NCBI RefSeq assembly: GCF_003019035.1 | Contig: NZ_CP027447.1 | Length of the DNA: 64,000 nucleotides | Direction: 5' to 3' (one strand) | DNA from: Escherichia coli | Lineage (GTDB): Bacteria > Pseudomonadota > Gammaproteobacteria > Enterobacterales > Enterobacteriaceae | Shown here: positions 29,344 through 33,354 of the stretch, piece by piece | Numbering within the stretch: position 1 is the first letter of the stretch | Layout of the letters: each line of letters begins with the position of its first letter | Translations under genes and position numbers: made by a program | Notes under the pieces: generated by a model | What the model saw: the letters and a program-made list of their open reading frames with translations, nothing else | Database searches by the model: none | What the model was told of the DNA's origin: nothing

Positions 29344-29367
29344 TTCGCACCTCATCATCTGCACGCA

Positions 29368-29420
29368 ATATACTATAGGGGGGTATGCTATATGTCAATG
29401 CATACCCCCCTATAGTATAT
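29368..29420 (-). promoter_or_regulatory. Perfect 21-bp inverted repeat (atatactataggggggtatgc / gcatacccccctatagtatat, 11-bp spacer) 25 bp upstream of frmR; candidate FrmR operator with G/C tract
   Basis: Exact inverted repeat read in sequence; CsoR/RcnR-family repressors bind G/C-tract operators. Confidence 0.7.
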
Positions 29421-29497
29421 AACACTGGAGAATAAAATTTATCCGGTGAATGTAGTCGGATAACAAAAAGGAAAGAGGGGCCTAATCGACAGGGAAG

Positions 29498-29519
29498 GCC
29501 GCCCCGGATAGCGGGCGGC
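29498..29519 (-). terminator. GC-rich hairpin (gccgccc..gggcggc) downstream of yaiO
   Basis: 7-bp perfect stem followed on the minus-strand transcript by a T-rich run. Confidence 0.5.
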
Positions 29520-29527
29520 AGAAGCAA

Positions 29528-30301
29528 TCAGAATTTCCAGGTCAGATGGGCTGCAAGTTGCAGACCGTTATAATCATCGGTTGGGGTGTCGTACCACACT
29601 TTACCTGCCGTCAGCCCGAGATTAAGTTGCTCAGTCAGCGGTTGAATACGTTGCAGACTGACGCTCTTCATGCTGCCGTAGCGTGTTTCTGGCGTCCAGT
29701 CATAGGTGTAAGCGCCTGTTCCGCGGCTTAGCCATAGTTGCGTATAACCAGTGCCGCGCGGGTCATTCAGACGCACGGAAATCATATTGCTGTAACTACC
29801 ACCTGCATCGCTGGAGTCATAATGGGTATAGCGGTAGCTGGAGATCACCGGGCCAGTATAGAGGGATACGCCGCCTTGCCAGGCATCGACTTCGACATCA
29901 TCGTAATATTTAGTGTAGCGATAACCGGTCGTGAAAAGCGTTTTTGGCAACAGGGCCAGGTTAATATCCTGACGAAAATCCTGGCGGGCAAAGACCGGCG
30001 TATTATCCGCAAAGGCAATACCCGTTCGGGTTGTCAGCCAGTTATTCCATTTATACCAGACCGCACCCTGACCGCGAGTGGCATTGAAATGTTCAGTTTC
30101 ATAATCACGACGCCCCTGGGAAAGATTAAAAAGCAGCGTTGCGTTTTCAACTTTCGCCACCAGTTCAGCATACGCTAAATTACGATTGCCATGATCGCCA
30201 GAATAATCGGTAAAATCGTAGCCCGCGGTAATGGAAGTTAACCCGGCATAAGCGGGCAATGTGCTAAAAATGGCCGCCGCTAATAACGTCCGTTTTATCA
30301 T
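29528..30301 (-). CDS. yaiO: outer-membrane beta-barrel protein YaiO
   Basis: 257-aa ORF with signal peptide and C-terminal aromatic residue (…HLTWKF). Confidence 0.9.
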   Translation of the reverse strand: MIKRTLLAAAIFSTLPAYAGLTSITAGYDFTDYSGDHGNRNLAYAELVAKVENATLLFNLSQGRRDYETEHFNATRGQGAVWYKWNNWLTTRTGIAFADNTPVFARQDFRQDINLALLPKTLFTTGYRYTKYYDDVEVDAWQGGVSLYTGPVISSYRYTHYDSSDAGGSYSNMISVRLNDPRGTGYTQLWLSRGTGAYTYDWTPETRYGSMKSVSLQRIQPLTEQLNLGLTAGKVWYDTPTDDYNGLQLAAHLTWKF

Positions 30302-30302
30302 T

Positions 30303-31013
30303 TTAATCTCCTGTACGGATAAGTTCTTGTCGGAGTGAATAAGTTCCGGTAGGTAAATTACGTTCTACAATCACGCGCGGGCCAAGTTGCGTGTTCGGGG
30401 AAATAATTCGCCCAGGCAAAATAATAACTTGTACGCCAAGGCGTGAACGCTGTCCGATATAACAACCTAATTTATCGCATCCGGTAGCGATAATTCCCTC
30501 TGGAGTTCGAACAGACACGGGCTGTTCATCCAGACGATGATTACTGGTACGTACTTGTGCGCCCAAATATGCCTGGTTTGCGACTACCGAGTCGGCAATA
30601 AAACATTGCGGACCAATCGTTGCTTCCGCTTCAATAACCGCATTTTTAATTTCGGTGGCGAAACCAATTTTTACGCCATTGCTGATTATTGTGCCAGGAC
30701 GAATAAACGCATAATTACCTATCAGGCAGTTTGCGCCAATCACTACCGGACCCTGAATAACGGCACCGTGACAAATACGGGTATTCGCGCCGATAACAAC
30801 TTCACCTGCAGTTTCATCAATAATTACCTGGTCTGCAATCTGAATATTTTTCTCTTTAACATTAAGCTTCAGAAAGTTTTTCAGTTCCTGTGACAGAAGG
30901 TTGGGAATAAGCGGTTGACGCTTCCACCAGTGCGGAATAGCGGGTGGGTTTGTCGCGCTGAGGTTCGCGTCCAGTAAAAAAGGCAATAAGTCCATAAATA
31001 ATCCAGATGGCAT
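30303..31013 (-). CDS. yaiX: hexapeptide-repeat (left-handed beta-helix) acyl/acetyltransferase, uninterrupted
   Basis: Repeated [LIV]-G-x-x-x-x hexapeptides across the ORF; N-terminal 50 codons overlap the yaiP 3' end in another frame, so the true start is uncertain. Confidence 0.75.
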   Translation of the reverse strand: MPSGLFMDLLPFLLDANLSATNPPAIPHWWKRQPLIPNLLSQELKNFLKLNVKEKNIQIADQVIIDETAGEVVIGANTRICHGAVIQGPVVIGANCLIGNYAFIRPGTIISNGVKIGFATEIKNAVIEAEATIGPQCFIADSVVANQAYLGAQVRTSNHRLDEQPVSVRTPEGIIATGCDKLGCYIGQRSRLGVQVIILPGRIISPNTQLGPRVIVERNLPTGTYSLRQELIRTGD

Positions 31014-32058
31014 AAGCTAATAATACATACACAACGGAAAGCGGCGCTAAAGGCACCAACAACCAGCAACGATGAAACCAGGCGCTAAAAGCACCAATAA
31101 CACAAACTACGCCGACCCAGATAAGCGGAAACATTGCCAACACCACACCATGCGGCCCGGTGGTGATGAATTCATTAAACCAGGTAGTGAGATAAATCCC
31201 AACGCCATAAAGCACAACCAACAGCATAGGAAATATACTGAAGATACCGAAGCGGCTAAATAAAAGTCTTTTATGCAGGCGCATACAGACCGCGTAGCCC
31301 ACAATCCAACGCCGCCAGCGACGCCATTCCTCACGCGGGCTGTTGCATTCCTGTGGGTATACGATGCAGCGATTCGCCTGCCGAATACGATAGCCGTTTG
31401 CCACCAATGTCCAGGTGAGATCAAGGTCTTCGACTTTAGTACGATCAGAGAAACCGAACTTACGCAATACATCAGTACGGAACATCCCGCAGGCACCGCT
31501 GATAATAAACGGTGCGCCGCCCAGGAGCTGCTGTAGCGTGCGCTTCATAACAATCATCGGCAACTTTACGGTCGCGCGGATGTGCGGTAACAGCCCCGCG
31601 CCTTTCAACGCAGTAGAGGGAATGCCGCCTACGGCATCAGCACCGCGCTCAATTTCTGCCAGCATATAGCCCATTCCGTCTTGATCGGGCGGAACATAGG
31701 TGTCGGCATCACTTAAAAAAACCTGGTCGCAGGTGGCGTAATTGAGGCCATTCATCAGCGCACCACCTTTACCGGTATTTTTTTGCGTGACGGCAACAAA
31801 GCGGTCGCCCCATTTGCGTTTGACTTCCGCCATGACCGCTTCGGTATTGTCCGTGGAGCCGTCGTTAACGCAAATTACCCGGCAAAAATAAGGGTTACGC
31901 AGCAGATTATCCAGTGACTGCGCCAGACACGGGCCTTCGTTATAAGCAGGTATAATGGCGTCAATACAGCCTTTTTTTTGGCTGGGCTTACGCCTTAACG
32001 TACTCAGGAACCATAGCAATATTGCTACGGCCATACAGATAAATATCCAGGTTTTCAT
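30862..32058 (-). CDS. yaiP: family-2 glycosyltransferase with membrane-embedded C-terminal domain
   Basis: 398-aa ORF with N-terminal TM helix, DxD (LSDAD), an EWRRW motif resembling Q-x-x-R-W of processive GT2 synthases, and three C-terminal TM segments. Confidence 0.88.
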   Translation of the reverse strand: MKTWIFICMAVAILLWFLSTLRRKPSQKKGCIDAIIPAYNEGPCLAQSLDNLLRNPYFCRVICVNDGSTDNTEAVMAEVKRKWGDRFVAVTQKNTGKGGALMNGLNYATCDQVFLSDADTYVPPDQDGMGYMLAEIERGADAVGGIPSTALKGAGLLPHIRATVKLPMIVMKRTLQQLLGGAPFIISGACGMFRTDVLRKFGFSDRTKVEDLDLTWTLVANGYRIRQANRCIVYPQECNSPREEWRRWRRWIVGYAVCMRLHKRLLFSRFGIFSIFPMLLVVLYGVGIYLTTWFNEFITTGPHGVVLAMFPLIWVGVVCVIGAFSAWFHRCWLLVPLAPLSVVYVLLAYAIWIIYGLIAFFTGREPQRDKPTRYSALVEASTAYSQPSVTGTEKLSEA

Positions 32059-32067
32059 GCAATTTGC

Positions 32068-32739
32068 TCAAAGAATCATTTTATGAATTACAAAGCCTTC
32101 ACCCAGATCGCTATTGACCTGTTGCCCGCGAAATTGTGCAACTGCACGCAGGCGATCATGACGCATATAATCGCGTCGTTCCTGGCTTTTATGTTTTTTT
32201 AATGCAGCAAGTTTGGCTGTGAAATATTCTTCTTTAACGGATTCAAAAACCTGAGGCATAAATGAAAGCCAGGTACTCGGGGTTTCGTAGCCGAGAATTT
32301 GTGGAATAGTTCGGCAGGCAACCATTGAGGCTTGATAGACTGCAAGATGATCCTGATGGCGGTCAGCATCATGCATGGTGTATACACGAATGATTTCTAC
32401 ATCAGACGGAATTTGATTTTTAATGATGTCTTCCAGGGCGGAAATCATATCATTGAGCTGTAAATGAGCGCGGGTGTCAGCAAAATTAAGATGAATAGTT
32501 TGGTGGCACCCTAATATCTTTAGGGCGTTGCGCGATTCTTCATGGCGATCGATTATTCCATCTGTGCCAGAGTTGCCGGTAGTCATCACCACGGCTGCGA
32601 TATAAATTCCTTTTTGCGCAAGACGAGCAAGCGATGCGCCACAGCCTAATTCTATATCGTCAGGATGTGCGCCAATAGCAAGGATACCCTTTCTTTTATT
32701 TGCCGAAGAAAGGAGGGCTGAATCTAAAACCTTATCCAC
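32068..32739 (-). CDS. yaiS: PIG-L/LmbE-family N-acetylglucosaminyl deacetylase-like protein
   Basis: 223-aa ORF with LmbE-type motif ILAIGAHPDDIELGCG; 10 bp upstream of yaiP. Confidence 0.85.
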   Translation of the reverse strand: MDKVLDSALLSSANKRKGILAIGAHPDDIELGCGASLARLAQKGIYIAAVVMTTGNSGTDGIIDRHEESRNALKILGCHQTIHLNFADTRAHLQLNDMISALEDIIKNQIPSDVEIIRVYTMHDADRHQDHLAVYQASMVACRTIPQILGYETPSTWLSFMPQVFESVKEEYFTAKLAALKKHKSQERRDYMRHDRLRAVAQFRGQQVNSDLGEGFVIHKMIL

Positions 32740-33354
32740 TTAATGACACTCCATTTTATTTATTATACTACAAGCACAACGATGCACTCAGAGACGTAAT
32801 CTCTGGCGCAGCCAGATGCTAATTTATAAGTGTTAAATGTTGCTAATAATTGAAAAGCCAGGGCTTTCAGATCCGGGGGGGCGACTGGTTAATGTTTTTA
32901 TGCAATTCATATGTTAAGTGTTTGTATGTTTGGTATGTATAGTTATTTTGTTTTATACATTGTATTTAGATGTGATTTAGTTTGTCAATTAATTGCATTT
33001 AAAAAATATGTTCTGTGAACAAGTATTGTTTATATACATTATGTGAATGTAATATGCGAGTGATTGAGAATGATACAGTGATATATATAATGCGAATATA
33101 ATAGTTTTATTATATGTATTGATATTGATAGAAATAATGAAGTAATAAATCTCGTAATGTGGTTGTTTATGCATCACTAAAATGAAGTGTAGTAATTTTC
33201 CCAATTGTTAGAACGGAGTAATTGCATATTTAATCTTTCCTTTGCCGTTTTTTTGCTAAGAATAAAATCATCTGTGCGATAACGACTAATTCTTTTAATG
33301 AATGTTTTTATTCCTGAATACTGCTCCCATAACAAGACAGGGGAGCAGACAATC

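Follow-up and report, generated by a model that had tools for sequence, protein, structure and literature searches.

What do the adjacent genes yaiS, yaiP, yaiX and yaiO of Escherichia coli make together? They lie in a 64,000-nucleotide stretch of E. coli DNA (the window; contig NZ_CP027447.1) that contains frmRAB, yaiO-yaiX-yaiP-yaiS and tauABCD. An original prediction, made from the sequence alone, had described them as a cryptic synthase-dependent surface glycan module with the functional logic of pgaABCD. Our results suggest that the operon is a minimal synthase-type pathway for a glycan that is derived from N-acetylglucosamine (GlcNAc) and remodelled at the amino group, a reading to which we assign a probability of roughly 0.55. 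The four-gene unit, the synthase-like glycosyltransferase, the outer-membrane barrel and the AT-rich upstream region of the original prediction were retained, and the equivalence with pgaABCD was not.

A Conserved Four-Gene Unit

The four genes are intact open reading frames (ORFs) on the minus strand and occupy positions 29528-32739, in a locus of which 3.9 kb is 95-100% identical in most complete E. coli genomes. The first, yaiS (32068..32739, GTG start, 223 aa), codes for a PIG-L/LmbE de-N-acetylase, and yaiP (30862..32058, 398 aa) for an inner-membrane family 2 glycosyltransferase (GT2) with a predicted synthase-like fold. They are followed by yaiX (30303..30995, start uncertain), coding for a hexapeptide left-handed beta-helix (LbH) transferase, and by yaiO (29528..30301, 257 aa), coding for a 14-stranded beta-barrel of the outer membrane that carries a Sec signal peptide and is proposed as the exit channel. 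The close packing reported earlier was confirmed. The yaiS-yaiP gap, as read from the sequence, is 9 nt, the yaiX stop is followed after 1 nt by the yaiO start, which has AGGAG 8 nt before its ATG, and yaiP and yaiX overlap. The yaiX ORF is open from 31013 to its stop at 30303, and its start is placed at the ATG at 30995 in the K-12 annotation and at 30884 by the Prokaryotic Genome Annotation Pipeline (PGAP). According to the choice of start, the overlap with yaiP ranges from 23 to 152 nt, and with the ATG at 30995 it is 134 nt. As had been stated, yaiX is uninterrupted in the window, and yaiS is intact here as well.

The co-occurrence of the four genes across genomes, a check that the original prediction had asked for, showed that they are a real unit. 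We compared 19 loci other than the standard E. coli one, of which 17 came from a one-genome-per-species scan for the YaiP motifs and two had been found independently before. The order yaiS-yaiP-yaiX-yaiO on one strand was kept in all 19, and every one of the 17 YaiP-type GT2 genes from the scan was accompanied by the other three. The scan requires exact motif matches and therefore undercounts. Its hosts were Escherichia whittamii, Citrobacter, Superficieibacter, Ignatzschineria, Lysobacter, Stenotrophomonas, Acinetobacter and Pseudomonas viridiflava, together with alphaproteobacterial and other proteobacterial metagenome-assembled genomes, so that the 19 loci span Enterobacterales, Xanthomonadales, Pseudomonas, Acinetobacter, Ignatzschineria and Alphaproteobacteria. 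On the contigs with the YaiO relatives of 35% and 43% identity, all four genes stand in this order. An all-against-all comparison of the flanking ORFs of the 19 loci found no fifth shared gene beyond close relatives. Pairwise dN/dS values of 0.04-0.23 for all four genes indicate purifying selection.

The flanks of the unit are wholly different between lineages. The Salmonella copy adjoins a PapB-like regulator (directly upstream), CcdAB and an integrase, and Citrobacter braakii ATCC 51113 carries two copies. About 560 E. coli records hold a second allele that is approximately 90% identical; in E. coli 3385 (NZ_CP029420.1, 2999-6205) it occupies a different chromosomal site, beside an IS66 remnant and PAPS-reductase-like/IbrB-like genes. 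Of the matching places in the E. coli search, 31 are plasmid-borne. The GC content of the cassette is 4-10 points under that of its flanks in enteric hosts, and its composition is largely host-like in high-GC hosts. From these comparisons, the four genes are a self-contained, horizontally mobile and selectively maintained cassette.

Some copies showed further features. The Salmonella copy shares the neighbours of that in E. coli 3385 (the IS66 remnant and the PAPS-reductase-like/IbrB-like genes). The E. coli 3385 cassette is a mosaic in which the identity to the window proteins is 94-97% for YaiP, YaiX and YaiO but only 63% for YaiS. A metagenomic copy is flanked by an MvaT/H-NS-like gene and a response regulator, and the neighbouring regulators differ by host.

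YaiP Is Predicted to Have a Synthase-Like Architecture

YaiP matched the GT2 family in Pfam (PF00535, E 7e-28) and carries D117-A-D119. Among curated families, PgaC_IcaA (TIGR03937) was the top match by a wide margin (E 9e-29), with HpnB (7e-7) and the polyprenyl-phosphate GT2 families far behind, and the score of 100.6 bits did not reach the PgaC_IcaA equivalog cutoff of 422.3. YaiP is 29% identical to K-12 PgaC over 241 aa, across the GT domain, and its D-x-D, V-E-D and RWRRW segments line up with the PgaC motifs. In this alignment the Q-R-L-R-W of PgaC stands opposite R247-W-R-R-W251 of YaiP, with Arg at the Q position. The segment EWRRW (E244-W-R-R-W248) that had been named as the counterpart of Q-x-x-R-W was thus displaced by three residues, and the true motif is R247-W248-R249-R250-W251, of which R247, W248, R250 and W251 are invariant in 30 YaiP orthologues.

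The YaiP orthologues are unusually conserved (52-85% identity across classes). Invariant motifs include N-D-G-S-T-D, D117-A-D119, G-A/S-C-G, V-E210-D211-L-D, P-Q-E-C and E-W-K/R-R-W-R-R-W, and the C-terminal helices contain the invariant residues W314, H329, Y344, Y349 and W352. After the last helix there is an invariant tail, G363-x-E-P-x-R-D-K-P-T-R-Y374 (window 30937-30972), which could be a gating-loop-like element. The tail is of cytoplasmic type and is coded where yaiX overlaps in a different frame, and the invariant Trp29 of YaiX may therefore be a by-product of the yaiP V-V-E codons.

An AlphaFold model of YaiP was obtained with a predicted local distance difference test (pLDDT) score of 77.7 and a predicted template modelling score (pTM) of 0.78. 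In the model, an N-terminal transmembrane helix (2-21) is followed by a GT-A domain (32-233), an interface helix with the RWRRW segment (241-261) and C-terminal helices at 269-300, 312-329 and 334-362. The predicted membrane part superposed on hyaluronan synthase (HAS) and BcsA, and not on ArnC, GtrB or DPMS. PcManGT, a mannosyltransferase according to its depositors, also falls in this fold class. A sequence search of solved structures gave matches to the N-terminal GT-A domain only, and the relation to the synthases emerged solely from the comparison of folds. The synthase-like architecture, on which the earlier claim had been made to depend, is therefore present in the model as a membrane-integrated fold of HAS/BcsA type and not of polyprenyl-phosphate GT2 type. 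YaiP would thus be an inner-membrane GT2 that joins this architecture to the D, DxD, ED and (Q/R)xxRW motifs.

The Deacetylase, the Transferase and the Barrel

The assignment of YaiS as a PIG-L/LmbE-type deacetylase with an AHPDD motif was upheld by the Pfam search (PF02585, E 6e-25; A24-H-P-D-D28). Its best curated match in NCBIfam was BshB1, and among solved structures the nearest were the diacetylchitobiose deacetylases of archaea (full-length alignment, E 8e-12), followed by BshB1; these relatives deacetylate chitobiose or GlcNAc-malate. In 20 YaiS orthologues H25, D27, D28 and H128-Q-D-H131 are invariant, so that both the AHPDD and the HxDH motif are present, and a conserved C-terminal block comprises H183, S185, Q186, R189 and Y191. 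By inspection of the sequence, the N-terminus has no signal peptide and no hydrophobic segment. YaiS is thus a cytoplasmic, zinc-type PIG-L/LmbE de-N-acetylase rather than a periplasmic CE4 enzyme.

YaiX matched LbH and Hexapep families in Pfam. Its best NCBIfam match was the acetyltransferase domain of archaeal GlmU (Arch_glmU, E 9e-38), and the nearest solved structure was ST0452 of Sulfolobus (E 1e-22). The nearest relatives N-acetylate glucosamine 1-phosphate or galactosamine 1-phosphate. N158, R160 and D162 of YaiX are invariant and correspond to N331, R333 and D335 of ST0452. The earlier description of YaiX as a hexapeptide-repeat acyltransferase holds for the LbH fold family, and the acyltransferase assignment is weaker, the GlmU/ST0452 His being absent. 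YaiX has no N-terminal hydrophobic segment, and like YaiS it is therefore predicted to be cytoplasmic.

YaiO belongs to the TIGR04390/PF19413 family (183.9 bits against a TIGR04390 cutoff of 32) and has a classical Sec signal peptide (...PAYA/GL). It was confidently modelled as an open 14-strand barrel, with the porins CymA and OmpG as top fold matches; CymA has a role with cyclodextrins. Its identification as an outer-membrane beta-barrel was therefore borne out, and this dedicated barrel is encoded together with the synthase in 19/19 loci. An exhaustive search of representative proteins returned 117 YaiO relatives, almost all of them stand-alone proteins of 250-293 aa; the three of more than 1,000 aa matched in short repeated stretches only. 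Very distant YaiO homologues lay on contigs that were too short or broke off at the gene, but in one of them, of 26% identity, the gene immediately before it is of the LbH type. Truncated YaiO entries are numerous in E. coli; they form clusters of 147-210 aa with 170-440 members each, some from complete genomes, and could reflect either frequent inactivation of yaiO or fragmented assemblies.

Proposed Pathway and Alternative Products

Taken together, the following pathway is proposed. YaiP, placed by its model in the inner membrane with the GT-A domain in the cytoplasm and an architecture of HAS/BcsA type, would most likely use UDP-GlcNAc as donor, because its nearest curated families, PgaC and IcaA, are GlcNAc transferases. 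The resulting poly- or oligosaccharide would cross the inner membrane by way of the membrane domain of YaiP or next to it. Before export, YaiS would free the amine on a GlcNAc residue in the cytoplasm and YaiX would re-acylate the amino sugar, presumably with a group other than acetyl, so that the two enzymes would remodel the N-acyl group on the donor, the primer or the chain end. The open barrel of YaiO would then be the way of the product across the outer membrane. The product could be a polymer, an oligomer or a glycolipid. By analogy, the logic of modification seems nearer to NodC-NodB-NodA, HpnI/HpnK or PIG-A/PIG-L than to polymer editing of the PgaB type, because the modifications would be cytoplasmic and PIG-L enzymes act on small glycosides.

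Several observations weigh against this pathway. Both modifying enzymes are apparently cytoplasmic, unlike those of known synthase-dependent systems, and characterised PIG-L enzymes act on small glycosides, not on polymers; MshB, BshB, PIG-L, HpnK and Dac de-N-acetylate single GlcNAc glycosides. The model gives YaiP only 1 + 3 long membrane helices, and BcsA and hyaluronan synthase have more. No receptor for cyclic di-GMP (c-di-GMP), such as PilZ, the PgaCD interface, PelD or Alg44, was found in NCBIfam with the four proteins, in Pfam with three of them or among the conserved neighbours. The fold matches of YaiO are generic 14-strand barrels, no TPR-YaiO fusion occurred among the 117 relatives or in a profile search, whose reach was restricted by the word index used, and no TPR scaffold adjoining YaiO is conserved in the locus flanks, a comparison of limited reach for very distant relatives. 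The invariant Pro135 of YaiX (window 30609-30611) stands, in an ungapped HMMER alignment, at the position of ST0452 His308, the catalytic base, which corresponds to the catalytic His363 of E. coli GlmU. For none of the four genes does the literature record a product, a transcript or a phenotype.

As regards Pro135, QdtC and WlbB are LbH N-acetyltransferases that work without a base. Since some beta-helix N-acetyltransferases need none, YaiX may be active as a transferase in spite of this residue. A possible substitute for the missing His is His159 of the S-N-H-R-L-D motif, which at least 80% of the YaiX orthologues retain.

Among the alternatives, a pathway for a glycolipid or small glycoconjugate survives best, although we consider it unlikely. 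Here a non-processive YaiP would add one GlcNAc to a lipid or small acceptor at the cytoplasmic face, YaiS would deacetylate and YaiX would N-acylate it, and YaiO would be the outer-membrane conduit or site. A deacetylase followed by an N-acyltransferase is a recurrent arrangement, seen in the logic of HpnI/HpnK, PIG-A/PIG-L/PIG-W and LpxC/LpxD. The hopanoid-type HpnI/HpnK and the glycosylphosphatidylinositol (GPI) pathways likewise set a glycosyltransferase beside a PIG-L-family de-N-acetylase at the cytoplasmic face, with an acyltransferase as the next enzyme in GPI synthesis. The top matches of YaiS to BshB1 and the chitobiose deacetylase, from a family that works on single GlcNAc glycosides, and the few long membrane helices of YaiP point the same way. 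However, YaiP is far nearer to PgaC/IcaA than to HpnB or the polyprenyl-phosphate GT2 families, and its modelled membrane part superposes on HAS/BcsA and not on ArnC, GtrB or DPMS. The named lipid pathways use lipid acceptors and a single sugar and have no dedicated, always-linked outer-membrane barrel, and no flippase or GT-C transferase is conserved near the cassette.

The synthase-type pathway also resembles the Nod factor system. NodC-NodB-NodA(/NodL) likewise combines a membrane GT2 for GlcNAc chains with a cytoplasmic de-N-acetylase and then an acyltransferase, a reaction logic that shares its compartment with that of the cassette. Diacetylchitobiose deacetylase acts at the non-reducing end, as NodB does, and the 1 + 3 helix count of YaiP resembles the published topology of NodC. 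Homology, however, is limited to the GT2: YaiP scored 29.3 bits with the NodC family TIGR04242 (cutoff 550), NodB is a CE4 enzyme whereas YaiS is PIG-L, and NodA forms its own family whereas YaiX is LbH. Nod factors leave via the NodIJ ABC transporter, whereas the cassette has a dedicated outer-membrane barrel. In its boldest form, which we regard as rather improbable, the cassette would be a four-protein trans-envelope pathway apart from cellulose, PNAG (poly-N-acetylglucosamine), Pel, alginate and Nfr. A short chitooligosaccharide-like chain would be de-N-acetylated by the PIG-L enzyme and re-N-acylated by the beta-helix transferase in the cytoplasm and would leave via the CymA/OmpG-like barrel, as a non-homologous analogue of NodC-NodB-NodA. 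If this were true, such an analogue would exist in E. coli, Citrobacter, Salmonella, Stenotrophomonas, Acinetobacter and Pseudomonas, and its product would possibly be a secreted acylated oligosaccharide signal or surface decoration, not a biofilm matrix polymer.

Regulation of the Cassette

The AT-rich region of about 600 bp that had been noted upstream of the cluster was confirmed as the yaiS-tauA intergenic region at 32740..33354 (615 bp; GC 0.30, compared with 0.52 in the window as a whole). Genomic SELEX (systematic evolution of ligands by exponential enrichment; PMC3946193) in K-12 identified this spacer between yaiS and tauA as a site of H-NS that has an RpoD promoter in each direction, and the spacer was also listed as an H-NS-associated "promoter island" (PMC3661553). 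The earlier suggestion of a silenced locus thus agrees with a documented H-NS site. A sigma-70 promoter-like sequence directed toward yaiS, TTGACA-18-TACAAT (32988..32959, minus strand), lies approximately 220 nt upstream of the start codon and matches the consensus at 11/12 positions; its hexamers and spacer are identical to those of the K-12 yaiS promoter from genomic SELEX (PMC3946193). In the promoter scan overall, sites were no more numerous than in shuffled sequence, and support for this promoter therefore comes from the literature match. These results suggest that the AT-rich region is likely an H-NS-bound regulatory region for the cassette, common to the divergent tauABCD operon. The operon is probably silent under laboratory conditions in E. 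coli, and "cryptic" is a fair description of it.

A search of the long 5' leader against Rfam gave no relevant regulatory RNA, and the terminator scan found no terminator-like site in a convincing context within the four-gene block. A GC-rich hairpin (GCCGCCC...GGGCGGC; 29498..29519, minus strand; fold -21.7 kcal/mol, z -2.25) lies 9 nt past the yaiO stop. It has no U-tract and was not called by the terminator scan, and it is a possible end of the operon. Outside the cassette, a palindrome upstream of frmR (window 29352-29435) gave chance matches to Rfam microRNAs (E 0.02-0.16, far below the gathering scores) and is probably the FrmR operator/promoter region.

State of the Cassette in E. coli

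Of the 5426 complete E. coli genomes, 4809 (approximately 89%) keep 80% or more of the coding region. K-12 differs, since its yaiX carries an IS2A insertion and its yaiS a CAG to TAG amber codon at the invariant Q186 (window 32184-32186), by which 38 residues are lost and a product of 185 aa remains; the window and the majority of E. coli have CAG at this codon. The K-12 cassette is thus doubly defective, and because of these two lesions K-12-based screens such as the knockout panel examined a dead cassette. The original observation that the four y-genes have no established function is in line with the literature, which holds no functional study of the cassette and none that treats the four genes as a unit or names a product. 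Mentions of yaiP are as a negative control (an antisense RNA within yaiP) and in a study of the RNA polymerase omega subunit, and those of yaiO are in knockout lists, lists of outer-membrane proteins and a transposon screen for type 1 fimbriae.

Such lesions raise the question of whether the genes have any joint function in E. coli, or whether they are a decaying remnant of horizontal acquisition whose packing is merely historical. Besides the K-12 lesions, IS1 has removed most of the cassette from BL21-type strains, the yaiS/yaiP junction of E. coli ampC_0069 carries an IS1, many YaiO entries are truncated, the promoter region is bound by H-NS, and no phenotype has been reported. However, the conservation of the coding region across complete genomes, the dN/dS values and the invariant catalytic motifs argue against decay. 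In an evenly spaced sample of 60 records only five copies were interrupted, all of them in laboratory-construct strains or strains without a natural-source entry. The exact 54-mer with the K-12 amber codon occurred in 355 records and the exact intact 54-mer in 2205, and among the matches listed the amber allele was confined to K-12-type or laboratory strains (12/12). We therefore give the remnant explanation little credence.

With a wider query, insertions were present in 7 of the 23 near-full-length matches listed. Insertion sequences were considered as a sign of widespread decay and rejected as such, the sampled interruptions of the coding region being found only in laboratory-type or unsourced strains. 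In ampC_0069, which is otherwise 100% identical to the window, the IS1 has inserted at the yaiS 3' end, immediately before yaiP. The insertion may disrupt yaiS, or its outward promoter may drive expression of yaiP-yaiX-yaiO. Wholly antisense to the 3' end of yaiS, at window 32083-32202 (plus strand), is ykiC, a gene reported in K-12 for a small protein of 39 aa; in the window it reads MNYKAFTQIAIDLLPAKL... and differs from K-12 by one residue. In other strains PGAP annotates yaiS as "partial" beside a hypothetical protein at the ykiC position, despite an intact yaiS ORF.

Comparison With Known Glycan Systems

The likeness to pgaABCD/icaADBC consists of a membrane GT2 nearest to PgaC/IcaA, a de-N-acetylase, an outer-membrane beta-barrel and a compact single-strand operon. 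It is on these grounds, including the top curated match to PgaC_IcaA and the 29% identity to K-12 PgaC, that the cassette might be taken for a divergent member of this group making partially deacetylated poly-beta-1,6-GlcNAc. We consider this very improbable, and strict membership was rejected on four tested features. The score of YaiP falls far short of the synthase cutoff. There is no PgaD/IcaD partner, the cassette having four ORFs and the 19 loci no fifth conserved gene. The deacetylase of the pga/ica systems is a periplasmic or extracellular CE4 enzyme (PgaB is periplasmic and acts on polymer), whereas YaiS is a PIG-L protein without signal peptide, and the substrates of its characterised relatives are small, cytoplasmic GlcNAc glycosides. 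PgaA is a TPR-plus-barrel exporter, whereas YaiO has 14 strands and no TPR domain. In addition, YaiX has no pga counterpart and needs cytoplasmic acyl-CoA, no c-di-GMP receptor accompanies the cassette, and pgaABCD is already present elsewhere in E. coli. The functional logic of pgaABCD originally ascribed to the cassette was therefore given up.

A reading of the cassette as an uptake or catabolic system, with import by YaiO and a Dac-like deacetylase, was rejected because conservation within the unit is highest in the biosynthetic GT2. With respect to anti-phage defence, PADLOC gave no matches, and PHROGs gave generic matches only (YaiP GtrB-like, YaiS and YaiX to families of unknown function).

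The class I hyaluronan synthases and BcsA have 13-16% sequence identity to YaiP, which lacks the PilZ domain and has the C-terminal motif GxEPxRDKPTRY and the 1 + 3 long helices as features of its own. Within E. coli, the NfrA/NfrB pathway of the N4 glycan receptor also comprises an inner-membrane GT2 and an outer-membrane protein, which have been proposed to make a surface glycan. Set beside the cassette by description only, NfrB has a c-di-GMP-binding domain, NfrA is a large TPR-plus-barrel protein, and neither has PIG-L or LbH partners. Thus, the component families, and the pairing of a membrane GT2 with an outer-membrane barrel as a kind, are already known. What is new is the combination of a cytoplasmic PIG-L enzyme, a beta-helix transferase and a 14-strand barrel without TPR, with no second-messenger module, which has not been described for any characterised system.

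Significance

The cassette is a near-core locus, found in about 89% of complete E. coli genomes, that has no assigned role, and its yaiO gene serves as an E. coli-specific marker for the polymerase chain reaction. K-12 is the strain behind nearly all systematic screens, and its two lesions together with the H-NS-bound promoter region are a possible reason why no function has been found; an intact copy such as that in the window makes the function of the cassette directly testable. Cytoplasmic de-N-acetylation and re-acylation beside a synthase-type enzyme may be a new chemistry. The cassette is a candidate for a further envelope glycan pathway in E. coli and in several opportunistic pathogens.

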